Origin: Microseira sp. BLCC-F43
GTDB lineage: Bacteria; Cyanobacteriota; Cyanobacteriia; Cyanobacteriales; Aerosakkonemataceae
Length of the DNA stretch: 58,364 nucleotides
NCBI RefSeq assembly: GCF_041929235.1
Contig: NZ_JBHFNP010000225.1
Location: forward strand, 1 to 58,364
Direction of reading: 5' to 3'
Below the pieces are notes generated by a model. The model made no database searches. It was not told where the DNA came from and saw only the letters and a list, made by a program, of their open reading frames with translations. Each line of letters opens with the position of its first letter. Positions within the stretch are counted from its first letter, which is position 1. This document shows, piece by piece, positions 391-32,755 of the stretch. Made by a program: the position numbers and the translations under genes.

Positions 391-861
391 ATGAAACTCC
401 CAAATTATCGAATTGGCGACCCAATTTTACCAACCGAATCAGAAGCGGCTATGGCACTAGCGAGTAGCCACATTTTGGCATCTTACTTAGAAAATCGAGA
501 AGGCAGTTGCACCATCAAACTGATGGAAGATGAAACTAACGGAAAAACAATAGAAATTCCGGCTCATGTCATGCAACTCTTGGTGGAGATTTTAGTACAT
601 ACGGGGATGGAACACCCGGTCAAAATTAAACCGTATACAAAAGAACTCGCAGACTATCAAGCCGCCGACATTTTGGGTATCACCCGTCACCAGGTATGGG
701 AATTAATGAACTCTGGCAAAATTCCCTATAAGATAGTCAGAAATGTCCATCGGATAAATTACCAAGATGTAATTGAGTATAAAAAGCAGGATGACGCGAG
801 ACGCGATCAAATTATGGATGAGCTGGTTGCTGAATCTCAAGCACTCGGTTTGTACGATTAA
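391..861 (+). CDS. Excisionase-family HTH DNA-binding protein, possible antitoxin partner of the downstream PIN fragment.
   Basis: The C-terminal segment ADILGITRHQVWELMNSGKIPYKIVRNVHRINYQDV is a typical MerR/Xis-type helix-turn-helix. A 4-nt gap separates it from the next ORF (operon-like). Confidence 0.5.
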   Translation: MKLPNYRIGDPILPTESEAAMALASSHILASYLENREGSCTIKLMEDETNGKTIEIPAHVMQLLVEILVHTGMEHPVKIKPYTKELADYQAADILGITRHQVWELMNSGKIPYKIVRNVHRINYQDVIEYKKQDDARRDQIMDELVAESQALGLYD

Positions 862-864
862 GTC

Positions 865-1095
865 ATGGCAAATTTCACAGTCGTCTACGATGCTAATGTT
901 TTATATTCAGCATCTTTGCGGGATTTTTTAGTTGAGCTGGCGCTGACAAAGCTGATTGAGGCGCGTTGGACGGAAGAAATCCACTCAGAATGGATCAGAA
1001 ATGTGCTTAAAAACCGTCCTGACACTACGATTGAACGACTCAACAGAACTAAAAATATGATGAATTCAAGTGTTGAAAATAGTCTGGTGACTTAA
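865..1095 (+). pseudogene. PIN-domain (VapC-like) toxin, N-terminal fragment only. Probably truncated by the repeat element that follows.
   Basis: The N-terminus FTVVYDANVLYSASLRDFL matches the first acidic motif of PIN domains. At 76 aa it is about half the normal length. The hairpin-MITE at 1186..1350 follows directly. Confidence 0.4.
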
Positions 1096-1185: not shown

Positions 1186-1350
1186 GCTGAGAAATATTTA
1201 CCCGCTGGGAAATAAATTTCCCAGCTAATAGCTAAAGTCCACTTAAGTGGACTGAAATTGCTCATCAGTCCTCTTGAGAGGACTTAAGCTATTAGCCAGG
1301 GATTTTAATCCCTGGCGGGTGATGCCGTTGATGCAAGATCTCAGCAGAAC
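1186..1350. repeat. MITE-like element made of four tandem perfect hairpins (copy 1).
   Basis: The four hairpins are ctgggaaat-aa-atttcccag, agtccac-ttaa-gtggact, agtcctc-ttga-gaggact and cagggatt-ttaa-tccctg. The element is flanked by agctgaga and tctcagc. A second copy lies at 12815..13020. Confidence 0.6.
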
Positions 1351-1369: not shown

Positions 1370-1396
1370 GGTGCGTTACGCTATCGCTAACGCACC
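1370..1396. terminator. Hairpin GGTGCGTTACGCTATCGCTAACGCACC directly downstream of the cobN-like stop. A member of a dispersed hairpin family.
   Basis: A perfect inverted repeat GGTGCGTTA..TAACGCACC. The same element occurs at 10724..10750 and 19925..19951, each time at a 3' gene end. Confidence 0.45.
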
Positions 1397-1403
1397 CTAC
1401 TGA

Positions 1404-4400
1404 TTAAATTGTTACGCCTTCCAATTCTTCATCTGTCAACTCATACAATTCGCGTAACTTCTGCAACTTTTCAGGATCGGCTTCCCAAAAACCTCGCCCG
1501 TGCGCTTCTAACATTCTGCCCACAATATTGCGAAAAGCTTCTGGATTTGCTTCGCGCAATTTCTTCGCCATTTCTGCATCTAAAGCATAAGTATCCGCCG
1601 CCTGATCGTAAACCCAATTATCGGTAAAATCAGCCGTACCACCCCACCCAATTAACGCCGTCATCCGTTGGGAAATTTCATACGCGCCGCCGCTACCTTG
1701 ATTCGCCATTGCATCTGCCCATTTGGGATTTAATAACTTAGTGCGATATTCCATCCTCAGCAAATCTTCTAAATTGCGCGGCGTTGTATCTTTCGAGAAA
1801 CTTTCCACAAAACTAGCATTAACCTTCTTACCTTGTTGTTTCTCCGCCGCCTTTTTCAAACCACCCGTATTGGCATAATATTCTTGAATATCGGTTAAAC
1901 CATATTCAACCGAATCAATTTCTTGCACCACGCGACGAGTACTTTGCAATAGTTGGTTTAAAACTTCCTTGCGAGATTGACCTTTATCATTTCTGCCGTA
2001 ACTGAAGGCATTGCGACTTTCCCAAGTACCCGCCAACTCTTCTCCAGAGTCCCAATTTCCATCAGTAACTCGCTCATTTACTAGCGAACCAAAATCGCCA
2101 GCGGGGTTCGAGAATAGACGCGCAGTGGGATTGGGGATATTTTGCGATCGCATCCCCAAAACATGTTTTCTGATAAAATTCATCTCCTCCGGTTCATCCG
2201 CATCCGCCGCCCGTTGAAACAGATCGTCCAACAACTCAATAATATTGACAAAACTATCGCGAAAAATCCCCGAAAGATTAGCCAAAACATCAATCCGAGG
2301 ATGCCCAACATCCTCCAAAGATTTCAACTCATAACGCACAATCCGCCCCGTACCTTCCTTGACGGGTTCCGCCCCCACCAACTCCAACAAAATCCCCAAA
2401 GATTCACCCTTAGTTTTAATCGCATCCAACCCCCACAACATAACAGCAACCGTCTCCGGATACTCCCCATGTTCCTCCAAATGTTGATCGATAATCTTCC
2501 GCCCAATTTCCCTCCCCCGTTCATAAGCACCAGCAGAAGGCATCCTATAAGGATCTAAAGCATGAATATTCCGCCCCGTAGGCAAAACACCCGCACCATC
2601 TCTTAACAAATCACCCCCCGGTGCAGGCGGAATATACTCCCCATTCAACCCCCGCAACAAATTCCTCAACTCCTCCGTATTGCGCCCCAACAACTCTCCA
2701 ATCTTTCTCCTCTCCTCTTCCTCTTCTCCGCGTCCTCTGCGTCTCTGCGGTTCATTCTCTTCCTCTCCAAAATAAGCATCAAAATACGATGCCAACTCCT
2801 CATCATTTGGTGGTTCACCCAAAGTATGCAACCCCGAAGAAAACAGACGAGTTTCCAACACTTGCAAATACTCGTACAACTTGACTAAATACTCATTAAA
2901 TGCATGGGCACTAAACATCCGGACATTCTCCGGCGTAAAAGAAATGCCCAACTTTTTAGCATCCTCAAACGGACAATCAGCCTCCAATCCCGTATCCACA
3001 ATCTTCTTACAAATCGCCTCCTTAAGCGCATAATTCTTTTGCGGATCTTCCCGATATTCCGAGATTAAATCTCGCAGCGCCACTAATTCCTTATACAACC
3101 CCGCCCTCCCGTAAGGCGGCACATTGTGAGAAATCAGCACCCCATATCCGCGACGCTTCGCCAGGATAGATTCAGATGGATTATTCGCGGCATAGATATA
3201 CAAATTGGGAACATCTCCCAATAAGATATCAGGCCAAGAATAACCTGTATTTCCTAACGGAGATCCGGGCAACCATTCAACCGTACCGTGCATTCCAAAG
3301 TGAACTACAGCATCGGCTTGAAACTCATTTTGCAACCATTTATAAAAAGCTGCATATTGGGGATGGGGCGTCATATCCCGTTCAAACATTAGTCGCATCG
3401 GGTCGCCTGCAATTCCCAAAGGTGGTTGCACGCCAATCCAAATATTTCCTAACTCGATACCGCCGATGTAATATTCATCTCCGTATGTTTTGATACCGCT
3501 GCTGGTGAGAGATTTCCACTGCTTTTCGATGCGGGTTGTGAGTAGGTAACCCAGCCATTTATCCAGAGTTTTGGCATTGACAGTGTTGTACTGATTTCCA
3601 TCAAGTATCGAGTCAATAACTGGTTCCTCTTTTTTGCTACGAATTGTAGGTTCATCTGCTTGTTTAACGCGGCGGATTAATTCTTCTCCATCTTCTGGTA
3701 ATTCGCCGACTGTGTAACCTTGTTCTTTAAGTGCTTGGAGTAATTTAAGCAGACTGCGAGGTACATTTAATAATGCAGCCGTTCCAACTGCCCCATATCC
3801 AGGCGGGAAACCGTAGAGAAGAATGGCAACTTTTCGTTTTGAAGCAGGTTTTTGTCTTAATTTAATCCAATTTTTCAATCTGCCAGTTAAACGCTTGACT
3901 CGTTCGGGAATCAGATAAATATCTTCTCCAACTAACCCGCCTAATGGCACTGTATCAATTGCTCCATCTAATTCTGGCAATGCATATAATACGACACTTT
4001 GCAATCCTCCAATACCTTGGCGCGTCCAGGAATGGATATCTTGAATTAGCAAAGGTGCGGCAACGATATAAGGTATATTCTTGGCAGTTAAAATCCTTTT
4101 TGATACTTCTATCTGGCGTCCTGCCTCCATCGAACCAGCAGGGCCACCTACGAGGGGAAATCCGATGGTAGAAACTATAGCATCTACTTGGACTGCTTCG
4201 TTAGATAGAGAAGGTGTTTCAATATTACCAAGTTGACGTTGATTGGTTTCATATTGAGTTGTCATCCAATCGCGCACGGCGACATGCCCTTCAACTCCAT
4301 TAATAAAAATAGGTAAGGGAATGAGTCCAGCTTCTTCAAAGTAGTTAATTAATTTAAGAATATAAGGCTGTTTGGTTACAACGTGTTTGCGATAAAGCAA

Positions 4401-5228: not shown

Positions 5229-6419
5229 TCAATTGCGGTTAGAAGCTTCATGTTGCTGCCGCTGGCGTTTCGCAAAAGAACCAGCACCCACAGCACCCAA
5301 CGCCAAGAATGCCAGTGCAGAAGAGGGTTCGGGAACAGATTTGGAAGTATTGGGTGTTAAGAGGAAGGCTCGCTGTTGACCATTGTAAAAGCCGCGACCC
5401 ACAATCTGTCCCGCATTGTTGATGTCTACTACACTGTTTAGTGTCCAGCCAGGAGCGGAAACCAAGTCGTTGAGGTCGCTGATGCCACTGCTCTTTTCCC
5501 AGAAGAAGGGACGATTTTGCCCAGAAGTGATGTATGAGTAACCAATTACCTGGCCTAAGTTATTGATGTCAATGGGATTGATTCCGTTATCCCCTAGAGT
5601 ACCCAAGTCAGTCATGCCGCTGCTCTTTTCCCACAAGAAGGCGTGATTTTGCCCATTAGCGATGTTGGATTGACCAACCACTTGACCTAAGTTGTTAATG
5701 GCATAAGCAGCGCTAAAGTTACCCCCCAGAGTACCCAGGTTAGTCATGCCGCCGCTCTTTTCCCACAAGAAGGCGCGATCGCCATCAGTGGTGGATGAGT
5801 AACCAACCACCTGACCATAGTCGTTGATGGCTGTGCCATAAGTATAGCTATAGCCATAATAACTCCCCAGTGTACCTAGGTTAATCATGTCGCTGCCCTT
5901 TTCCCACACGAAGGCGCGATTTTGCCCATAACCAGAAAAGTAGGTGTATGTGTTACCAAGCATCTGACCTAAATTGTTGATGGCTGTGGCAAAGGCATAG
6001 CCATAGATACTTCTCGGTGGACCCAGCTCAATCATGCCGCTGCTCTTGTCCCAGAAGAAGGGATTTTCCCCATAGTTGTTCGCTCTATTACCAACGACTT
6101 GACCTAAGTCGTTGATCGCTGTGGCATAAGTATAGCCAGACCAGTTGCCATAGCCATAGATACTTCTCGGTGGATCCAGGTTAATCATGCCGCTGCTTTT
6201 GTCCCACAAGAAGGCGCGATTTCCCCCACCAGCGGTGTTTGAGCTACCAACCACCTGACCATACTCGTTTATGGCATAGGCAGAACTAGAGTCACCCCCC
6301 AGCGTACCCAGGTCTGTGATAGAAAAACTGATAGCATCGGCTCTTTGGGCGCTGGTGATTCCCAAGAATGCAGCGGCAGTTAGTGCCATACCAACTTTGC
6401 AAGCATTGAGTATTTTCAT
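5229..6419 (-). CDS. HAF-repeat extracellular protein with a PEP-CTERM sorting signal (paralog 1 of 4).
   Basis: Signal peptide MKILNACKVGMALTAAAFLG..AQRADA. About 40-aa repeats NxxGQVVG...(R/H)AFLWEKSSGMxDLGTLGG, including HAFLW. The C-terminal VPEPSSALAFLALGAVGAG..KRQRQQ is a PEP-CTERM motif followed by a TM helix and a basic tail. Confidence 0.8.
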   Translation of the reverse strand: MKILNACKVGMALTAAAFLGITSAQRADAISFSITDLGTLGGDSSSAYAINEYGQVVGSSNTAGGGNRAFLWDKSSGMINLDPPRSIYGYGNWSGYTYATAINDLGQVVGNRANNYGENPFFWDKSSGMIELGPPRSIYGYAFATAINNLGQMLGNTYTYFSGYGQNRAFVWEKGSDMINLGTLGSYYGYSYTYGTAINDYGQVVGYSSTTDGDRAFLWEKSGGMTNLGTLGGNFSAAYAINNLGQVVGQSNIANGQNHAFLWEKSSGMTDLGTLGDNGINPIDINNLGQVIGYSYITSGQNRPFFWEKSSGISDLNDLVSAPGWTLNSVVDINNAGQIVGRGFYNGQQRAFLLTPNTSKSVPEPSSALAFLALGAVGAGSFAKRQRQQHEASNRN

Positions 6420-7349: not shown

Positions 7350-7575
7350 ATGAACTTGGATGCGATTGTCATCGGTAGCGGCATCGGCGGTCTAACCGCC
7401 GCCGCCTGGGTCGCCCGTGACGGTAAGCAGGTATTGGTCGCAGAAAGTCACGCCATTGCGGGCGGCGCGGCTCACAGCTTCGCGCGGCGCGGCTTTACCT
7501 TTGATTCTGACCCCTCGTTCTACTGCGGCCTCAGCGACCCGCGTAGCCCATATCCGGTGTGACAGGTTCTCGATG
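7350..7575 (+). pseudogene. Duplicated 5' fragment of the CrtI-family FAD oxidoreductase gene. It forms a direct repeat with 12452..12730.
   Basis: Encodes MNLDAIVIGSGIGGLTAAA..FTFDSDPSFYCGLSDPRSPYPV and then a stop. It is nearly identical to the N-terminus of 18390..19859, and homology continues past the stop. The same upstream palindrome and leader as at 18305..18389 precede it. Confidence 0.6.
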
Positions 7576-16568: not shown

Positions 16569-17717
16569 TCAATTGCGACTAGAAGCCTCGTGTTGCAGCC
16601 GCTGGCGCTTCGCCGCACCAGCACCCACAGCACCCAATGCCAAGAATGCCAGCGCAGAAGAGGGTTCGGGAACAGATTTGGAAGTATTGGGCGTTAAGAG
16701 GAAGGCACGGTATTGACCATTGTAAAGGCCATAGCCCGCAATCTGCCCCGCATTGTTGATTCCTACTACATTGTCTAGTATCCAGTCAGGAGCCCAAACC
16801 AAGTCGTTGAGGTCACTGATGCCGCTGCTCTTTTCCCACAAGAAGGGGCGCATTCGCCCATCAGCGGTGGCTGAGTAACCAAGCACCTGACCATAGTTGT
16901 TGATGGCTATGGCAAAGCTAAAGTCACCCCCCAGAGTACCCAGGTCACTCATACCGCTGCTCTTTTCCCAGAAGAAGCTGCGATATGGACTAGCAGCGGT
17001 GAATAACCAACCAATCACCTGACCATAGTCGTTGATGGCTCTGGCAAAACTAAAGTCACCCCCCAGAGTACCCAGGTCACTCATACCGCTGCTCTTTTCC
17101 CACAAGAAGGCGCGATATGGCCCATTTGCGTCGTATAAGCTACCAACCACCTGACCATAGTTGTTAATGGCTCTGGCATAGCTAGATTTACCCCCCAGAG
17201 TACCCAGGTTAACCATGCCGCTGCTCTTTTCCCACAAGAAGGGGCGACCTTGCCCATCAGCGGTGTTTGATTGACCAACTACCTGACCTAAGTTGTTGAT
17301 GGCATTGGCAGAACTATAGTCACCCCCCAGAGTACCCAGGTCACTCATGCCGCTGCTCTTGTCCCAGAAGAAGGCACGACTTTGCCCATCAGCGGTGCTT
17401 GAATTACCAATCACCTGACCATAGTCGTTGATGGCAGAGGCACCGCTATTGTTACCCCCCAGAGTACCCAGGTCACTCATGCCGCTGCTCTTTTCCCACA
17501 AGAAGGCGCGACCTTGCCCATCAGCGGTGTTTGAGCTACCAACCACCTGACCATACTCGTTGATGTCTGTGGCATAGCTCTGGTTATAGTCACCCCCCAG
17601 CGTACCGATGTCGGTGAGAGAAAAAGTAATAGCATCCGCAGGTTGGGAGGTAGCTAGTCCCAAGAACGCAGCGGCAGTTAGTGCCATACCGACTTTGCAA
17701 GCATTGAGTATTTTCAT
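16569..17717 (-). CDS. HAF-repeat PEP-CTERM protein (paralog 4).
   Basis: Signal peptide MKILNACKVGMALTAAAFLGLATSQPADA, HAF repeats, and C-terminal VPEPSSALAFLALGAVGAGAAKRQRLQHE. Confidence 0.8.
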   Translation of the reverse strand: MKILNACKVGMALTAAAFLGLATSQPADAITFSLTDIGTLGGDYNQSYATDINEYGQVVGSSNTADGQGRAFLWEKSSGMSDLGTLGGNNSGASAINDYGQVIGNSSTADGQSRAFFWDKSSGMSDLGTLGGDYSSANAINNLGQVVGQSNTADGQGRPFLWEKSSGMVNLGTLGGKSSYARAINNYGQVVGSLYDANGPYRAFLWEKSSGMSDLGTLGGDFSFARAINDYGQVIGWLFTAASPYRSFFWEKSSGMSDLGTLGGDFSFAIAINNYGQVLGYSATADGRMRPFLWEKSSGISDLNDLVWAPDWILDNVVGINNAGQIAGYGLYNGQYRAFLLTPNTSKSVPEPSSALAFLALGAVGAGAAKRQRLQHEASSRN

Positions 17718-18304
17718 AATTTCTCCTTACCAAATTGATTGCTACAAAAAAAACAAAGCGCACAGTGAAAAGACTCGCTCTCGTGCGCACAGGTACTCAT
17801 CGGATTCGCCTCAGCGAGTCTGTGCTATTTCTGTTGCCGAAAACTCACATCTTTTGCTTGATTTTTCACAAATTCGGGAGAATCGCAAATCAACCGGGTT
17901 TCTCCGAAAAATCGTTGGTTTGGAACTAGAGATATGCACACCCCTAGCACTCGCGTTCGCAGCTTGAAACCCGGTTTCTATGTGAGGTGAATCGAAAACA
18001 GGCATCACTTTGTCATGACTGTTTTCTAAATGCTGAAAGAGGGCTTTTTAGAACTATTCTTTCAGCTTCATGCACTGGGATCGATCAATATAGTCACTAG
18101 ATTTAACTATTTTCATCGAAACATAACCTTCAATTCCAGCTAATTTATCAAGGTGTTTCAGTAAACTTACCATTTTGGTGCAAACTTGATTTTACTTTTA
18201 CCAGAACTTCACAGGCTCTTCACGGCATCTTCAAAAATCAAATAAATATTTTTACGGAAACTGCTTGCAGGAAACCTGTTTGGGACGCGCGTTCGCCCCC
18301 CCCC

Positions 18305-18338
18305 AGAAACCCGGTTTTTTAGAAAAACCGGGTTTCTT
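18305..18338. promoter_or_regulatory. Perfect palindrome AGAAACCCGGTTTTTT-AG-AAAAAACCGGGTTTCT about 55 nt upstream of the oxidoreductase start. Candidate operator or terminator.
   Basis: Inverted repeat seen directly. The same arrangement precedes both 5' gene fragments. Confidence 0.4.
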
Positions 18339-18389
18339 GAACTTGGATTATAAAAAATAAAGAATTAGTAAATAGCAAGCAAACTAAAT

Positions 18390-19859
18390 ATGAACTTAGA
18401 TGCGATTGTCATCGGTAGCGGCATTGGCGGTTTAACCGCCGCCGCGCTCCTCGCCCGTTACGGCAAGCAGGTATTGGTATGCGAAAGTCACGCCATTGCG
18501 GGCGGCGCGGCTCACAGCTTCGCGCGGCGCGGCTTTACCTTTGATTCTGGCCCCTCGTTCTACTGCGGCCTCAGCGACCCGCGCAGCCTGAATCCGGTGC
18601 GACAGGTTCTCGATGTTCTGGGAGAATCTTTGCAGACGGTTACTTATGACCCGTTGGGACACTATCATTTTCCTGAAGGTACGTTTCCGGTTTATAGCAA
18701 TGGGCGGCGATATCGAGATGCTGTGGCAAAGATTACCCCCCAAGGCGCTATAGAATTAGAAAAATTTGAAAATCGCCTGTTGCCTTTGTACGATGGGATG
18801 AAAGGTATTCCTACTATTGCTTTACGCGCAGATTGGCAAATCATACCTATTTTATTGGGAAGATACTTGCCATCTTTATTAAAATTATTGCCCCACGTGG
18901 GAGTAATTCAAGGTTCCGTTGGCGAGGTGATGGATAAAGAGGTAAAAGATCCTTGGGTGCGGCGGTTAATCGATTTAGAATGTTTTCTGCTATCCGGTTT
19001 AAAAGCACAAGGAACTATCGCCGCTGAAGTCGCTTTTATGCTAGGCGAACGTACTAATATCGGCGTCGATTATCCCATCGGTGGAAGTGGGGCAATTGTA
19101 GATGCTTTGGTGCGAGGTTTGCAACGCTGGGGCGGAAAATTGCGATTGAATGCCCACGTCGAGCAAATATTAGTAGAATCGGGGAAAGTAGCGGGAGTGC
19201 GATTGCAGAATGGGGAAGTTATAAAAGCACCCATCGTTATTTCCAATGCGACGCTCTGGGATACTTATAATAAGTTGTTGCGTCCGGAAGATTTACCTTC
19301 TTCTTATCGTCAGCAATCGCTCTTAACTCCCGCCGTGGATAGCTTCATGCACTTGCATTTAGGTATCCGCAGTCAAGGGTTAGAACATTTGACAGGACAT
19401 CACGTTGTCCTTCGCGATTCTAATCGGGATATTACCGAACCTGGGAATACTTGCATGATTTCGATTCCTTCGGTGTGGGATAGCAATCTAGCACCCAAAG
19501 GACATCATGTAGTCCATGCTTATACTTTGGAACCTTTCGATGGATGGCGACGGGATGATAGTTATGAAGATAGGAAAAAAGAGCGATCGCATCCCCTTTT
19601 CCGCGCCTTAGAAAAAATTATCCCCGATCTGCGCGATCGCATCGTCCTGGAACTCATCGGTACACCCCTTACCCACGCCTATTATCTCCGCAGATACAAA
19701 GGAACATATGGTCCAGCTATTGCTGCGGGTAAAGGTACATTCCCCAGCATCTATACTCCCATCCCCGGATTGTACCGCACGGGCGATAGCACGATGCCTG
19801 GAATTGGCGTCCCCGCCGTCGCCGCTTCCGGTATTTTGTGCGCCAATAGTCTATTTTGA
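18390..19859 (+). CDS. NAD(P)/FAD-dependent oxidoreductase of the phytoene desaturase/carotenoid isomerase (CrtI/CrtISO-like) family.
   Basis: 489 aa. N-terminal Rossmann dinucleotide fold AIVIGSGIGGLTAAALLARYGKQVLVCESHAIAGGAA. The length and overall organisation are typical of amine-oxidase/CrtI-family flavoproteins. Confidence 0.65.
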   Translation: MNLDAIVIGSGIGGLTAAALLARYGKQVLVCESHAIAGGAAHSFARRGFTFDSGPSFYCGLSDPRSLNPVRQVLDVLGESLQTVTYDPLGHYHFPEGTFPVYSNGRRYRDAVAKITPQGAIELEKFENRLLPLYDGMKGIPTIALRADWQIIPILLGRYLPSLLKLLPHVGVIQGSVGEVMDKEVKDPWVRRLIDLECFLLSGLKAQGTIAAEVAFMLGERTNIGVDYPIGGSGAIVDALVRGLQRWGGKLRLNAHVEQILVESGKVAGVRLQNGEVIKAPIVISNATLWDTYNKLLRPEDLPSSYRQQSLLTPAVDSFMHLHLGIRSQGLEHLTGHHVVLRDSNRDITEPGNTCMISIPSVWDSNLAPKGHHVVHAYTLEPFDGWRRDDSYEDRKKERSHPLFRALEKIIPDLRDRIVLELIGTPLTHAYYLRRYKGTYGPAIAAGKGTFPSIYTPIPGLYRTGDSTMPGIGVPAVAASGILCANSLF

Positions 19860-24930: not shown

Positions 24931-25204
24931 GGCATACACCAATCAGAAACCCGGTTTTTTCAAAAAACCGGGTTTCTTGCTGCGAACGCGAGTGCTAGGG
25001 GTGTGCATATCTCTAGTTATCAAACCGACGATTTTTCAGAGAAACTTTGGTGATTTGCCTAAGTCCTGGTTATTTGTTTGTCCGAGATATCTATCTTGTT
25101 CCCTAATCCTAATTATGGGTAATCGACCGGACATGATATTATATCAACTATCGGTTGGGGCGGATTTAACGAACAGAATGTTTGGTAAAACCCGCCCCTA
25201 CAAT

Positions 25205-25292
25205 CCCCATTACCAATTAGCAATTAGCAATTAGCAATTAGCAATTAGCAATCCCCATTACCAATTAGCAATTAGCAATTAGCAATTACCAA
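25205..25292. repeat. STRR-like heptamer array (CAATTAG/CAATTAC)n.
   Basis: ccaattagcaattagcaattagcaattagcaatccccattaccaattagcaattagcaattagcaattacc. A matching array at 26053..26092 flanks the other side of nanE. Confidence 0.7.
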
Positions 25293-25962
25293 TCCCCTCT
25301 ACATACGCTTTTACCAAATAATCAATCCCGGTAATAGCCGTACCAACTACAACTGCATAAGCACCTAAATTAAGCGCTTCTCGTGCCATTTTTGGAGAAG
25401 AAATACCGCCTTCGCAAATTACGGGAATGTCTAATTTTTCTACCATTTGAGTCAGCAATTCAAAACCGGGGGGAGACAAATGTTTGGTTTCGTTTGTGTA
25501 ACCGTAGAGAGTTGTTCCTACAATATCAGCACCCGCTTGGGCAGCTGACTTCGCATTCTCAATTGTATCCACATCCGCCATCACCAATTTGCCCAATTCA
25601 TCGTGAATTCGCTTAATTAACCCCGCGACTGTTTCCCCATTCGGGCGTTGTCGCAGCGTCGCGTCGATGGCGATGATATCCGCACCCGCAGAGGCGATCG
25701 CTTCTGCGTCTTCATACCGTGGTGTAATGTAAACTTCATAACCTGGTATTTGCTGTTTCCACAGTCCGATAATCGGCAATTTAACTTTTTGCCGCACCGC
25801 GCTGACATGATAGGGAGTATCAATTCGCAACCCTACTGCGCCTTGGTTCACCGCCGCTTGCGCGATTGCAGCAATGATCGCGGGATCGTGTAGCGGCGAG
25901 TCAGCAGGCGCCTGACAGGAAACAATTAGACCTCCACGGAGCGATATCATTTCTGGTAACAT
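25279..25962 (-). CDS. nanE: N-acetylmannosamine-6-phosphate 2-epimerase (NanE family).
   Basis: GGLIVSCQAPADSPLHDP near the N-terminus and the overall TIM-barrel NanE pattern. The start is set at MLPEMISLRGG. Confidence 0.7.
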   Translation of the reverse strand: MLPEMISLRGGLIVSCQAPADSPLHDPAIIAAIAQAAVNQGAVGLRIDTPYHVSAVRQKVKLPIIGLWKQQIPGYEVYITPRYEDAEAIASAGADIIAIDATLRQRPNGETVAGLIKRIHDELGKLVMADVDTIENAKSAAQAGADIVGTTLYGYTNETKHLSPPGFELLTQMVEKLDIPVICEGGISSPKMAREALNLGAYAVVVGTAITGIDYLVKAYVEGIGNC

Positions 25963-26098
25963 AAGCTGATTTTTGTAGGGGCGGGTTTTACCAATAACCA
26001 TTAAACTGCAACAGATCGTTAAAATAAACCCGCCCCTTTTTGGGTATGAGGAGAATTAGCAATTAGCAATTAGCAATTAGCAATTACCAATCCACCCA

Positions 26099-28565: not shown

Positions 28566-31500
28566 ATGCATCGTATCGCCGCCACCCCTGGGGGTTGGAA
28601 TCCTGACACTGAAGGTGTAATCTTTGTCGAGCAAACCCCTGCTCCTATAGTCATTCTGACTGCTGCCGACACCGATATTCAAACCCTGGTTGCCGCTGTC
28701 AAGCAACTACCCGATGACTTTCCAGCACTACGGGTGGTCAATCTATTGCAGTTGCAGCAACAGCTAACCATCGATACCTATGCAGAACTTGTTCTGACAT
28801 CAGCACGGGTAATTATCCTGCGGTTATTGGGGGGACGCGCTTACTGGTCTTATGGATTGGAAGTCCTACAGGAGACAGTACGGCAAACCGGCGCCGCACT
28901 GATTGTACTCCCCGGAGATGACCGCCCCGACCCCGATTTGCTCGCTCTTTCCACGGTTTCTCTATCAAAGGTTAACCAAGTATGGCGCTACTTCACCGAA
29001 GGCGGCAGCGAAAATTGCGTTAACGCCCTCAAATTTGTCGCCGATATCTGCCTGGGACAATCCCACAACCCACCGCCACCCCAAGAAGTGCCGCGGGTGG
29101 GGCTTTATCGGCAAGAGGACTCTTGGACGCGGGGACCCGGAGACGCGGGGAATGACATCGACCCATCTTGTTCCCTACTTCCTAAAGTGGGACTGTTGTT
29201 TTATCGCGCGCATTATTTGGCGGGAAATACACTCCCAATTGATGCGCTTTGTCAAGCTTTAGCGGCACGACAGTTAGAACCAGTGCCGGTATTTGTTTCT
29301 TCGTTGCGCGATCGCGATGTCCAAGCCGAATTATCCCAATATTTCCAGCCGCCAGAAACAGCACCCGTGCAACTGATACTCAACACCACCAGTTTTGCAG
29401 TTGCAGATTTTAGCTTTTCGATTAGACTTGAGCCAAAATTCAGCCCCAAGACAGGCGAGACGCCTATTCCACAAGATTTATGGGAGAAGTCTAATTCAGA
29501 TTCAATCCACAATCTAGATGTCCCCGTTTTGCAAGTTATCCTCAGCGGCGGCACTGTAGAACAGTGGTCAGCCCAATTTCAGGGACTTTCCCCCCGCGAT
29601 ATGGCGATGAATGTCGCGCTACCAGAGGTGGATGGGCGAATCATTACCCGTGCGGTTTCTTTTAAAGCAATACAAACCCAAAATTCCCAGTTAGAGACGG
29701 ATGTAGTAATTTATCAACCCCATTTAGAACGGATAGAATTTGTGGCCGAATTAGCCGCTAACTGGGTGCGACTGCGGCAAACTCCCCCAGAAAAGCGACG
29801 AATTGCTCTAATTTTGGCAAATTATCCGTGTCGCGATGGCAGACTCGCCAATGGTGTGGGACTCGATACCCCTGCAAGTTGTGTAGAAATTCTCAAGGCG
29901 CTGCAACAAGCTGGATACTGGGTAGAAAATATACCCGCAACGGGGGATGAACTGATGCAACGTTTAACCGCTGGGGTGACCAATGACCCCGAAGGGCAAC
30001 AATTGCGCCCCGCAATGCAGCAGTTATCTTTGGAGGAATATCAAGCGTATTTTGCTACCTTGCCAGTTGAGGTGCAGAAAGAAATATGCGATCGCTGGGG
30101 AATTGGTAATGGGTCATTCCATTCCCAGGCGGAACCAGGGAACGAGGGTAATAGCAAAGAAAACCAATTAGCAATTAGCAATTACCAATTAGCAATTCCC
30201 GGCATTCAACTAGGCAATATTTTTGTCGGAATTCAACCGAGTCGGGGCTACGATCTCGACCCCAGTTTAAACTACCACGCCCCGGATTTAGAACCGCCCC
30301 ATAATTATCTGGCGTTTTATTATTGGGTGCGAAAACATTTTGGCTGTCACGCGATCGCTCATATCGGCAAGCACGGTAATTTAGAATGGTTACCGGGTAA
30401 AAGCGTCGCCCTATCGAATCAATGTTATCCCGAAATCGCCCTCGGCGCTTTGCCCCACCTCTACCCATTTATTGTCAACGACCCCGGTGAAGGTTCATCT
30501 GCAAAACGTCGCGCCCAAGCGGTTATTATCGCTCACCTCACGCCACCGATGACCAGGGCAGAATTATACGGTCCGCTGCAACAATTGGAAAGTTTAATAG
30601 ACGAGTATTACGAAGCACAGAATTTAGACCCCTCCCGACTCCCAGCAATCCGATCGCGCATCGCCCAGCTAGTAGAAAAAGAAAACTTGCATCAAGACTT
30701 GCAAATCGCTAATAGGCAAGAAAACCAATTACCCATTACCAATTACCCATTACCAATTACCCAACTAGACGGCTATCTTTGCGAACTAAAAGAAGCCCAA
30801 ATACGCGATGGGTTGCATATTTTTGGCCAATGTCCCCCAGGACGACAACTGCGAGATTTGATAGTTGCGATCGCTCGTCATCCAGGGGTCGGTCGTCTCG
30901 GTTTAACTCGCGCCTTAGCTCAAGATTTCGGCCTAGATTTTGACCCGCTTACCGCTGATATGTCAGCAGGTATTAGCCATCAGTCATCAATCATTGGTAA
31001 AGAATGTCGCACCGTCGGCGATATGGTTGAACTTCTGGAAGAACATGCAGCTAAATTAGTCGAACAACTAATATCTGAGTGCGAACAGCACACCTGCACA
31101 AGAGCATCTTTAAAAGCCACCCAACGCGAACTAGACTGGATACGCGCGCACCTCCTCCCCGCATTGCAACAAACTCACCAAGAAATTACCAACCTGTTGC
31201 GCGGACTCGACGGGCGCTTCGTCCCCCCCGCCCCCTCTGGCGCACCCACGCGGGGACGCCCGGAGGTTTTACCCACTGGTCGCAATTTTTACTCAGTTGA
31301 TATCAGGGGAATTCCCACCGAAACAGCTTGGGATGTCGGACGCAAGGCGGCAGAAGCTTTAATCGAACGCTACGCCCAAGAAAACGGAGAGTATCCGAAA
31401 GCACTGTGTTTATCCGTATGGGGGACATCCACGATGCGGACTGGCGGCGACGACATCGCCGAAGCATTGGCGTTAATCGGCGTCCAGCCGGTGTGGGATG

Positions 31501-32570
31501 GCCCGTCGCGGCGGGTGGTAGATTTTGAAATTTTACCAATATCGATTTTGGGGCGTCCCCGCGTAGATGTGACGTTGAGAATTTCCGGCTTTTTCCGGGA
31601 TGCTTTCCCGAATTTAATCGATTTATTCGACCAAGCCGTCGCAGCCGTGGCGGCGCTGGATGAGACGCCGGATGGCAATCCTTTGGCAGCTGCTGTGCGC
31701 CAGGAAACCCAGATGTGGATAGGTGCTGGGGTGGGAGAAGAACAGGCATTAGTGCGATCGCGCTATCGTATTTTTGGCTCAAAACCTGGTGCTTACGGTG
31801 CGGGATTGCAAGGTTTAATTGAATCCCAAAACTGGACAGATGAACAAGACCTTGCCCGTGCCTATATTAACTGGAGTTGTTACGCTTATACATCAGGATT
31901 TGGTAATAGGTCATTCCATTCCCAGGCGGAGTCAGGGAACGAGGGTAAAAACCAATTACCGATTACCAATTACCCATTACCCAACGCAGATCCAGAAGCC
32001 TTTGAACAGCGACTGCGGCAAATGCAAATAGTATTGCACAATCAAGATAACCGGGAACACGACTTACTAGATTCAGATGATTACTATCAGTTTCAAGGCG
32101 GTTTAACGGCATCGGTGCGTGCATTAACGGGCAAAAATCCTCAAACCTATTTCGGCGATAATTCTATTCCGAGTAATCCCAAAGTTAGGCAGTTAAAATC
32201 AGAAATTGCCCGCGTGTATCGTTCGCGCGTCGTTAATCCTAAATGGATTGCTGGGGCGATGCGCCACGGTTACAAAGGCGCGTTTGAAATCGCAGCAACG
32301 GTAGATTATTTATTTGCCTACGATGCAACGGCTAACTGCGTAGAAGATTTTATGTATGAAGGAGTTGCAGAAGCATATTTATTCGCTCCAGATGTACAGG
32401 CATTTATTCAACAGAAAAACCCTTGGGCATTGCGAGATATGGCAGAACGTTTGTTAGAAGCAAACCAGCGGGGTTTGTGGCAAAAAGTTGACCCAGAAAC
32501 CGTGGATAAATTGCGAGCGATCGCCCACCAAGCAGAAGCCAATATAGAAGCTACAAACTTCACATTGTAA
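28566..32570 (+). CDS. cobN: CobN/magnesium-chelatase-family protein (second paralog) carrying three in-frame repeat-element insertions.
   Basis: 1334 aa. Collinear with the 1404..5111 paralog. Extra peptide segments SFHSQAEPGNEGNSKENQLAISNYQLAIP, NRQENQLPITNYPLPITQ and SFHSQAESGNEGKNQLPITNYPLP are encoded by the repeat DNA at 30104..30200, 30715..30772 and 31898..31985. Confidence 0.8.
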   Translation: MHRIAATPGGWNPDTEGVIFVEQTPAPIVILTAADTDIQTLVAAVKQLPDDFPALRVVNLLQLQQQLTIDTYAELVLTSARVIILRLLGGRAYWSYGLEVLQETVRQTGAALIVLPGDDRPDPDLLALSTVSLSKVNQVWRYFTEGGSENCVNALKFVADICLGQSHNPPPPQEVPRVGLYRQEDSWTRGPGDAGNDIDPSCSLLPKVGLLFYRAHYLAGNTLPIDALCQALAARQLEPVPVFVSSLRDRDVQAELSQYFQPPETAPVQLILNTTSFAVADFSFSIRLEPKFSPKTGETPIPQDLWEKSNSDSIHNLDVPVLQVILSGGTVEQWSAQFQGLSPRDMAMNVALPEVDGRIITRAVSFKAIQTQNSQLETDVVIYQPHLERIEFVAELAANWVRLRQTPPEKRRIALILANYPCRDGRLANGVGLDTPASCVEILKALQQAGYWVENIPATGDELMQRLTAGVTNDPEGQQLRPAMQQLSLEEYQAYFATLPVEVQKEICDRWGIGNGSFHSQAEPGNEGNSKENQLAISNYQLAIPGIQLGNIFVGIQPSRGYDLDPSLNYHAPDLEPPHNYLAFYYWVRKHFGCHAIAHIGKHGNLEWLPGKSVALSNQCYPEIALGALPHLYPFIVNDPGEGSSAKRRAQAVIIAHLTPPMTRAELYGPLQQLESLIDEYYEAQNLDPSRLPAIRSRIAQLVEKENLHQDLQIANRQENQLPITNYPLPITQLDGYLCELKEAQIRDGLHIFGQCPPGRQLRDLIVAIARHPGVGRLGLTRALAQDFGLDFDPLTADMSAGISHQSSIIGKECRTVGDMVELLEEHAAKLVEQLISECEQHTCTRASLKATQRELDWIRAHLLPALQQTHQEITNLLRGLDGRFVPPAPSGAPTRGRPEVLPTGRNFYSVDIRGIPTETAWDVGRKAAEALIERYAQENGEYPKALCLSVWGTSTMRTGGDDIAEALALIGVQPVWDGPSRRVVDFEILPISILGRPRVDVTLRISGFFRDAFPNLIDLFDQAVAAVAALDETPDGNPLAAAVRQETQMWIGAGVGEEQALVRSRYRIFGSKPGAYGAGLQGLIESQNWTDEQDLARAYINWSCYAYTSGFGNRSFHSQAESGNEGKNQLPITNYPLPNADPEAFEQRLRQMQIVLHNQDNREHDLLDSDDYYQFQGGLTASVRALTGKNPQTYFGDNSIPSNPKVRQLKSEIARVYRSRVVNPKWIAGAMRHGYKGAFEIAATVDYLFAYDATANCVEDFMYEGVAEAYLFAPDVQAFIQQKNPWALRDMAERLLEANQRGLWQKVDPETVDKLRAIAHQAEANIEATNFTL
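30104..30200. repeat. Intragenic insertion of about 95 bp: conserved head ggtaat(g/a)ggtcattccattcccaggcgga.cagggaacgagggtaa plus a CAATTAG/CAATTAC heptamer array.
   Basis: A near-identical element lies at 31898..31985. A related heptamer array lies at 30715..30772. All are multiples of 3 bp and keep the cobN reading frame. Confidence 0.65.
31898..31985. repeat. Second copy of the intragenic repeat element inside cobN.
   Basis: tggtaataggtcattccattcccaggcggagtcagggaacgagggtaaaaaccaattaccgattaccaattacccattacc. Confidence 0.65.
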
Positions 32571-32573
32571 TAT

Positions 32574-32646
32574 TGGCTAATCGCTAATCGCTAATCGCAA
32601 AAAGGCCATTACCAATTACCAATTAGCAATTAGCCATTAGCCATTT
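32574..32646. repeat. STRR-like heptamer arrays (CTAATCG)n and (CAATTAC/G)n downstream of cobN.
   Basis: gctaatcgctaatcgctaatcgc ... ccattaccaattaccaattagcaattagccattagccatt. Confidence 0.7.
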
Positions 32647-32755
32647 ATATGATGTCCGGCAAATTGCCCTTAATTAAAACTCTCCGCGTCCCCGCATCCC
32701 CGCGTCCCCGCGTCAGTCCTAACTATGGGTATTCAAGCGTACATGATATTACAGA

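Follow-up and report, generated by a model that had tools for sequence, protein, structure and literature searches.

Inverted pairs of a two-hairpin module in Microseira resemble REPINs and probably have a subclass 1.2 Y1 transposase as their partner

Two short stretches of a 58,364-nt sequence from the cyanobacterium Microseira sp. BLCC-F43 (contig NZ_JBHFNP010000225.1, positions 1 to 58,364, all of which was analysed and is called the window here) raise the question of why a small non-coding repeat should change the sequence of its hairpin stems while keeping them paired. A preliminary description of the window had read the two stretches as copies of one MITE (miniature transposable element with inverted repeats), each a chain of hairpins with a ggcgggtg tail, and had pointed to compensatory differences between them. 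These differences were quoted correctly: agtcctc/gaggact in one copy corresponds to agtccgtt/aacggact in the other, and cagggatt/aatccctg to ctggggtt/aaccccag. Our analysis suggests, with a probability that we put at roughly 0.68, that both copies are gene-less doublets of a two-hairpin module, similar to the doublets of repetitive extragenic palindromic (REP) sequences known as REPINs, and that this module is tied to a Y1/HUH transposase of subclass 1.2 that would act on it and mobilise it.

The module is 63 nt long and consists, from 5' to 3', of hairpin 1, the linker TTnnGCTATTAGC, hairpin 2 and a GCGGG end. Hairpin 1 has the form AGTCC-nn, a TTNA loop and nn'-GGACT, while hairpin 2 has a stem of 7-9 bp that is free in sequence and is likewise closed by a TTNA loop. 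Alignment of the copies combined with folding indicated that each window copy is a head-to-head inverted pair of modules with the GCGGG ends pointing outward. The hairpins and tail of the preliminary description are therefore present, with perfect hairpins at 1205-1224, 1236-1253, 1267-1284 and 1297-1314 and the tail at 1314-1321 in copy 1, and perfect hairpins at 12897-12916, 12930-12947 and 12960-12977 followed by ggcgggtg in copy 2, where the leftmost, fourth hairpin is degraded; the tandem chain gives way to an inverted pair of two-hairpin units.

A covariance model of the module (R1) detected exactly four modules in the 58-kb window, three at 75-79 bits and a degraded one at 34 bits, and no further full-length significant match in these 58 kb, the other matches with low E-values being partial hairpin self-matches within both copies. 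In copy 1, the left module (1196-1258, minus strand; hairpins AGTCCACTTAAGTGGACT and CTGGGAAATTTATTTCCCAG) matched R1 over its full length at 79.4 bits (E = 2.7e-21), and the right module (1262-1324, plus strand; hairpins AGTCCTCTTGAGAGGACT and CCAGGGATTTTAATCCCTGG, then GCGGGT) scored 77.9 bits (E = 7.5e-21). The right module of copy 2 (12925-12987, plus strand; hairpins AGTCCGTTTTAACGGACT and CCTGGGGTTTAAACCCCAGG, then GCGGGT) scored 75.5 bits (E = 3.6e-20). Its degraded left module (12856-12921, minus strand) has a broken hairpin 2, the linker GCTACTTGC and a 6-nt loop in hairpin 1, and reached 34.4 bits (E = 3.1e-8) with two non-pairs. Hairpins of the AGTCC...GGACT type occur four times in the window compared with 0.27 expected, and fold z-scores were -10.5 for copy 1 and -11.7 for copy 2, with 0/200 shuffles equally stable. 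The predicted fold of copy 1 closes GCUGAGA with UCUCAGC and ACCCGC with GCGGGU.

Scanning species-representative genomes for GGACTTNNGCTATTAGC returned at least 118 stretches, which formed the basis of an alignment of 128 modules and of a set of 207 modules found with a sequence profile. Among the matches listed, nearly all came from filamentous or colonial cyanobacteria of many orders, the carriers including Nostoc, Calothrix, Rivularia, Fischerella, Microcoleus, Phormidium, Symploca, Coleofasciculus, Stenomitos, Pleurocapsales and Cyanosarcina; nine listed matches in other phyla lay inside genes and were discarded as chance. Hairpin 2 of the right module of copy 1 recurs unchanged in Microseira wollei (L059), UBA11372 (L096) and Microcoleus (L100).

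Across the 128 modules, taken from more than 100 cyanobacterial genomes, 92.6% of the stem cells pair, compared with 24-51% when the partners were slid by 1-3 columns; both sides had changed in 398 cells, and the covariation score was 0.527 compared with at most 0.114 in the control. An independent set of 140 distinct modules located beside Y1 genes, aligned by fitting to the covariance model, gave 97.5% paired cells, 499 two-sided changes and a score of 0.604 compared with at most 0.099. Thus, the maintenance of base pairing proposed in the preliminary description extends to the family. The check that it had named, for uncompensated stem changes in additional copies, did not refute it; these copies carry hundreds of two-sided changes. 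Sequence is conserved in the linker, in the AGTCC/GGACT foot of hairpin 1 and in the TTNA loops, and the distal stems vary freely. On the module strand the loops read TTNA and not TNAA, and G:T mismatches outnumber A:C mismatches by 90 to 20, an excess that subfamily founder effects and the choice of stem register may have inflated. These data strongly support the view that base pairing is actively maintained and that the hairpins matter as single-stranded structures.

The modules also keep a characteristic arrangement. The sequence profile detected at least 207 modules in 110 loci, with 152 of the 207 in (-)(+) pairs and only 4 adjacent (+)(-) pairs. The two arms of a doublet are non-identical, typically joining an AGTCCAyT arm to AGTCCTCT or to an AGTC[AG]TCT arm, and the element therefore has a polarity. 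Several other identities were considered for these sequences and rejected: a CRISPR repeat (CRISPR-DR46 reached 21 bits, with the gathering score at 50, which is not significant), a guide-RNA scaffold of the TnpB/IscB type, considered for the conserved tail (the element is symmetric, with no such gene nearby), and binding palindromes of the HetR, LexA or NtcA type (the stem sequences are not conserved).

The evidence that connects the module to an enzyme came from its gene neighbourhood. Unsupervised clustering of all open reading frames (ORFs) within 1.5 kb of modules yielded a four-locus cluster of ~147-aa proteins with doublets on their flanks. These proteins match Pfam Y1_Tnp with scores of 92-103 bits, exceed the cut-off of the NCBIfam IS200 model (87 against 55 bits), retain the HUH motif and the catalytic tyrosine (Y motif YVKNQKAHH) and align to the ISHp608 and ISDra2 TnpA structures. 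In our Y1 alignment (A4), whose members are 139-155 aa long, there is no variation at H53, H55, W94, Q95, K119, H121 and H122 and almost none at Y114.

Homologs of the Y1 protein are numerous in cyanobacteria, mostly with one contig each. When homologs from six genera were picked by protein alone, modules scoring 42-75 bits adjoined the gene in 6/6 cases, on both sides in four, and were found nowhere else in these 5.4-kb loci. Two further Y1 loci likewise had adjoining modules, and the loci inspected by hand come to 12/12 with a module within 250 bp. The usual layout is a minus-strand module, the gene and a plus-strand module within ~640 bp, as in the unit at 2393-3028 of locus L238. A metagenome scan that used a protein alignment alone gave 80 Y1 loci, 67 of which had a module within 250 bp, and module density was 4.28 per kb near the Y1 gene compared with 0.43 per kb away from it, a tenfold difference. 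The hairpin 1 variants of the window are identical to variants that stand beside Y1 genes elsewhere. The Y1 gene had one place for each protein looked up, with neighbours (PAPS_reduct and AAA_23) conserved in Limnoraphis (25 contigs) and Microcoleus.

In Microcoleus FACHB-53 (L237) and Limnoraphis (L244-L250) the Y1 gene lies between PAPS_reduct and AAA_23/SMC-like genes with an HNH/ScoMcrA-type gene near, giving the look of a defence island, and in a member of the Leptolyngbyaceae (L241) it is directly upstream of type I-D cas genes (Csc2, Csc1, Cas6).

The doublets are often enclosed in outer shells, and these differ between the two window copies. Copy 1 (1187-1344, from CTGAG to CTCAG) is 158 bp long and comprises a vestigial IS701-type left tip, the module doublet, a 12-nt spacer and an IS701-family-type right terminus at 1330-1344 (plus strand; GATGCAAGATCTCAG), which is one base off the consensus GGTGCAAGATCTNAG (14/15). 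Copy 2 (12822-13023) forms a long imperfect palindrome with the 13-bp inverted repeat ATGATGCTGTTGG / CCAACAGCATCAT at its limits, and its fold pairs both ends. This repeat was noted before and is present at 12822-12834 and 13011-13023, as the tip of the longer palindrome rather than as a demonstrated transposase end. The shell of copy 2 is partly decayed and recurs in locus L115, including its right-hand spacer; with low confidence, a remnant of a further module end (tCCCTGGCGGGt) and a decayed IS701-type end (gaCCAGATGtg) may lie at 13025-13075 (plus strand), given that in L115 the same spacer is followed by CCCCTGGCG...GGTGCAAGAT. The left boundary of copy 2 at ~12822 is where similarity to a paralogous repeat, the reverse complement of 32642-32749, ends; the comparison fixed this boundary only, with similarity restarting at 13084. 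The paralogous sequences at 12714-12824 and 32642-32749 (inverted) are themselves a dispersed repeat with tandem GACGCGG-type heptamers.

Beyond the window, many doublets are enclosed by CTNAG-ATCTTGCACC ... GGTGCAAGAT-CTNAG termini, and full elements with both IS701-type ends measure 161-219 bp. Termini of this type (CTNAGATCTTGCACC) were flanked by 4-bp duplications in 8/13 elements inspected, the family-level duplications including TATG, TAGA, TTTT, ATTA, TTTC, TAAA and CAAA. Among 67 doublets, both ends were of the IS701 type in 12, one end in 7 and neither in 48. Seven other doublets lie between CAGGGCTATTTCATTC ends with 9-10 bp duplications (L075, L063, L095, L003, L053, L043 and L104), and in five (L114, L048, L089, L018 and L088) the ends are CATTGGTGTCAACTTAAG and the duplications measure 9 bp, with one target, CACGTCGGT, used twice. 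Many doublets carry ends of none of these types. Since doublets occur in all three of these shells, the doublet is, as judged from its surroundings, a cassette common to at least three MITE shells of apparently different transposase families. The idea that the window holds two copies of one MITE accordingly had to be given up in favour of a common core in different shells, and the term MITE itself is right broadly, for small, non-coding, non-autonomous elements of which copy 1 has an IS701-type terminus, although the core is REPIN-like and not that of a classical MITE with terminal inverted repeats and a DDE-type transposase.

The source of the IS701-type ends could be traced further. Scanning viral contigs for the terminus yielded one true insertion sequence (IS) of 1152 bp, from Deinococcus (L202), the remaining matches being mostly chance. 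The best NCBIfam model for its DDE transposase was IS701, at 99 bits and thus below the cut-off of 150, and the GenBank product name of an identical Deinococcus gene is 'IS701 family transposase'. Homologs of the L202 transposase on Nostoc, Calothrix and Acaryochloris plasmids have the same CTNATATCTTGCACC ends with TCGG or TTAA duplications. The IS701-family elements examined contain no modules. Among the first 118 loci, the sole long-range pair of ends that might have marked an autonomous partner (L052) turned out to enclose a membrane-protein gene with a separate small element on either side and was rejected. Window positions 12280-12383 hold a separate 104-bp MITE with IS701-type termini (CTCAAATCTTGCACC ... 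GTGCAAGATCTCAG) and a clean 4-bp duplication (CAAA) at 12276-12279 and 12384-12387. Hairpin modules are absent from this MITE, and a different palindrome, at 12318-12348, forms its core.

Because the same modules, in the same orientation, bracket the Y1 gene in many cyanobacteria, we interpret the doublets as probable non-autonomous counterparts of the Y1 unit. In the mechanism that we propose, the Y1 enzyme would bind the module hairpins in single-stranded DNA, such as that of the lagging-strand template, and cut next to the conserved unpaired motifs (GCTATTAGC and GCGGG), so that doublets could be excised and reinserted. A copy that lost a hairpin would cease to propagate, so that stem changes would persist only if compensated and loops and linkers would remain fixed. 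Such action on the hairpins would account for the covarying stems, for the conservation of unpaired motifs and of loops, for G:T being tolerated in a strand-specific manner and for the inverted doublets. As a second layer, ordinary DDE-type MITEs would have taken up the doublet as their core; an IS701-family transposase, an enzyme that makes 4-bp target duplications, may at some time have mobilised copy 1 in trans, a second route for shelled doublets that is suggested by their termini and duplications.

Several observations weigh against this interpretation. Its support comes from sequence comparison, and binding, cleavage and transposition are proposed steps. The window encodes neither a Y1 transposase nor an IS701-family enzyme in its 58 kb, and the Y1 gene of the source genome was not found in this stretch. 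There is no empty site for copy 1, as an identical copy is present in four related contigs with no insertion polymorphism. The target-site duplications whose search the preliminary description had suggested are clear for 4-bp repeats at the level of the family but lacking at copy 1, where the flanks read TTAG and CAGA, and copy 1 also has no intact left terminus, retaining only CTGAGA of the IS701-type end. With nhmmer, 13/80 metagenome loci had no module within 250 bp and 7 had none at all; the covariance model detected 302 modules in these loci, in nearly all of them, and recovered most of the nhmmer-negative ones. The Y1 protein fails the NCBIfam RAYT (REP-associated tyrosine transposase) model REP_Tyr_transpos, scoring 22-28 bits against a cut-off of 80, and is thus not a class-2 RAYT. 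Neither the GTAG nor the CGTC tag known from classical REPs occurs in the modules, the hairpins used by canonical IS200/IS605 enzymes lie on a single strand and not at inverted ends, and the possible inflation of the G:T excess counts here as well. Finally, the link between gene and modules might have arisen because the gene inserted into a doublet.

An alternative, which we consider unlikely although not exclusive of the interpretation above, is that the modules have a host function as structured RNA or DNA (as stabilisers of mRNA 3' ends, transcription barriers or nucleoid-protein sites) and are selected copy by copy, with the Y1 protein as a domesticated caretaker. Only 1/123 elements lies within a long ORF, and among 67 intergenic settings divergent ones are depleted (5/67) and convergent ones number 22/67, both window copies likewise lying between convergent 3' ends; yet tolerated selfish insertions show an intergenic bias equally. 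A domesticated gene would be expected to be single-copy and syntenic, which the Y1 gene appears to be, and REPs and MITEs have been reported to act as RNA elements (PMC3733652). Against a role in RNA, no T-run follows the hairpins, which excludes intrinsic terminators, and Rfam 15 gave no match at gathering score in the window, permissive E-values producing only sub-threshold generic hairpin matches in both regions. Moreover, the favoured strand is opposite in the two arms of a doublet, such that one transcript would fold only half of it well, and copy 2 is visibly decaying.

Rather improbable, and a little more so, is that the elements are plain DDE-type MITEs moved only by IS701-family or similar transposases, with the hairpins as passengers whose stems are kept by template switching in quasi-palindromes or by youth. 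IS701-type termini and 4-bp duplications surround many doublets, and matching autonomous IS701-family elements exist in Nostoc and Calothrix. Close copies also differ by G-C to C-G swaps, which are hard to reach by point mutation and easy by copying from arm to arm. However, the absence of modules from IS701-family elements implies that the core is not their deletion derivative, and the 48 doublets of 67 that have no IS701 end, together with those in shells with unrelated ends and 9-10 bp duplications, speak against this reading as well. Homogenisation of palindromes would not explain an unpaired linker and TTNA loops that are kept across orders when the stems vary, and the tenfold enrichment beside the Y1 gene would have no explanation.

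Preferential insertion of an IS200-like gene cassette into the doublets, which would then not be its ends, is very doubtful. IS elements are known to target REPs (PMC3733652 and references in PMC3116915), and the position of the gene, precisely between a (-) and a (+) module, is what insertion at the centre of a doublet would produce. A targeting IS would be expected in multiple copies among many of the hundreds of doublets, whereas the Y1 gene appears to have one syntenic place per genome; furthermore, no other terminal hairpins are evident between the modules and the gene, and arrays of doublets accumulate on both sides of it.

Elhai and co-workers reportedly described small dispersed repeats (SDRs) of 21-27 nt with a common hairpin fold and compensatory changes, often embedded in minitransposons. 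The notion that each 18-22 nt hairpin is an independent SDR-type mobile repeat inserted, perhaps via RNA, into pre-existing minitransposons draws on the similar shape of hairpins 1 and 2 (a 7-bp stem and a TTNA loop) and is very improbable, given the fixed hairpin order and linkers of one 63-nt unit, the occurrence of AGTCC hairpins nowhere else in the window, and the reported confinement of SDRs to Nostocaceae (PMC5861425) when the modules span many orders.

If the association with the Y1 enzyme holds, the consequences reach beyond Microseira. It would give a candidate DNA partner to a Y1/HUH subclass described as low-copy, not IS-like and free of repeats; what this subclass does could then be tested directly on a defined substrate of 63 nt. 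Hairpin MITEs of a type common in cyanobacteria would be recast as REPIN-like, explaining the covariation of their stems, and the REPIN-RAYT arrangement would be extended beyond class-2 RAYTs to an IS200-like lineage and a larger, two-hairpin unit. That a single core is found within shells from different families of transposase suggests two transposition systems layered on one repeat, which is unusual. On a practical level, the repeats fragment cyanobacterial assemblies, and the covariance model now detects them. The broadest version of this proposal, to which we would give even odds, is a phylum-wide system of REPIN-RAYT type built on the 'orphan' subclass 1.2, with the 63-nt module as substrate and the doublets making up much of the hairpin MITEs catalogued in cyanobacteria; they would have been captured repeatedly by unrelated DDE-type MITEs (the IS701 type with 4-bp duplications and two shells with 9-10 bp duplications) and so have several independent routes of mobilisation.

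Other features of the window stand apart from these conclusions. Upstream of copy 1, an HTH_17 antitoxin-like gene (391-861) is followed by a PIN_3 toxin gene cut to 76/189 codons (the pair spanning 391-1095, plus strand). The truncated PIN gene had been said to abut copy 1; its ORF (865-1095) does encode the first 76 aa of a 189-aa PIN_3 protein, with 76% identity to a full-length paralog, and a 90-bp gap makes the word abut too loose. A full HTH_17 and PIN_3 pair lies further along the same contig, beyond the window start (L119, 8587-9630). On the other side, 26 bp from copy 1 and directly after the CobN stop, positions 1370-1400 (minus strand) form a GTAG-tagged REP-type hairpin, GTAG-GGTGCGTTA-GCGATAGCG-TAACGCACC, which resembles the REP class tied to known cyanobacterial RAYTs and would place two Y1-associated repeat families side by side. 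An 874-aa ORF at 7908-10532 (plus strand) has the full architecture of a major vault protein (Vault repeats 1-4 and MVP shoulder, E to 1e-67), which is unusual in a cyanobacterium. Four paralogous PEP-CTERM / DUF3466-like genes on the minus strand (5229-6419, 13123-14397, 14598-15746 and ~16560-17900) contain 132-nt (44-aa) tandem repeats of 85-90% identity, and related strains vary in repeat number (396, 429 and 439 aa). Three N-terminal FAD/NAD-binding fragments of 70-92 aa (7350-7562, 12452-12730 and 18301-18600) are 90-93% identical and appear to be dispersed together with the PEP-CTERM gene units. Long arrays of CAATTAG / CCATTAC heptamers occur at ~25187-25293, 26047-26091, 30152-30210, 30720-30764, 31940-31984 and 32586-32644.

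How do these elements compare with known systems? The full texts searched for the module motifs held nothing relevant. Nezha and other cyanobacterial MITEs (Zhou 2008; Wolk 2010; Wang 2012, PMC3542288), compared by description only, are alike in size, IS-like ends and fold. Nezha elements of Anabaena and Nostoc are 130-170 bp long with ISNpu3-type terminal inverted repeats, direct repeats and a very stable predicted fold, and 'group 1' MITEs of Anabaena sp. 90 have three nested inverted repeats and no matching IS (PMC3542288). Nezha and SDR repeats may overlap with the present elements. None of the accounts compared here links the hairpin core to a Y1 transposase.

Among systems with Y1 enzymes, TIRtrons with their TIRYT genes (Di Nocera et al. 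2013, PMC3733652) are Y1 genes flanked by long inverted repeats, some self-complementary or 'double palindromic', whose gene-less copies form dimers elsewhere in the genome. They differ in belonging to modest families that mainly encode RAYT-like proteins of Proteobacteria and Acidobacteria, while the repeats described here are far more widespread and structured. Enzymes of the superfamily, such as those of IS608 and ISDra2 and E. coli TnpA_REP, recognise hairpins in single-strand DNA and cut beside them (cited via PMC6006769 and PMC3733652). IS200/IS605 elements and their derivatives, palindrome-associated transposable elements (PATEs), thus share with the present system a Y1/HUH enzyme above the IS200 cut-off and single-strand hairpin recognition as the family mechanism. 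Unlike our elements, which have inverted ends, an apparently single-copy gene and only the gene-less form in abundance, they have ends that are not inverted, both hairpins on one strand and multiple near-identical copies.

The closest likeness in organisation is to REPIN-RAYT systems (Nunvar 2010; Bertels and Rainey 2011, PMC3116915). In both, an extragenic palindromic unit is abundant and mostly forms inverted doublets folding into long hairpins, such units also flank a Y1/HUH gene, which here appears to be single-copy, and the stems evolve in a compensatory manner. The module differs in being 63 nt long with two hairpins and conserved linkers, where a REP is a single hairpin of 20-35 nt, and its enzyme belongs to class 1 (IS200-like, Y---Q--HH), whereas RAYTs belong to class 2 (Y---NP). 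The repeat of the known N. punctiforme RAYT (Npun_F5543) is an unrelated REP, GTTGGGTTGAGGAACGAAACCCAAC. The enzyme itself matches TnpAY1 subclass 1.2 (Quentin et al. 2018, PMC6006769), whose proteins of ~148 aa have the motifs DH[IV]H, WQ and YIKNQKEHH, are low in copy number in Cyanobacteria and Bacteroidetes, are listed as 'REP: no' and are generally without terminal secondary structures of IS200 type. The module-associated protein fits the motifs DH[IV]H, WQ and Y[IV]KNQK-HH, the length, the low copy number and the cyanobacterial range of this subclass (Table 1 of PMC6006769), with the difference that nearly every cyanobacterial member examined here is flanked by the two-hairpin module.

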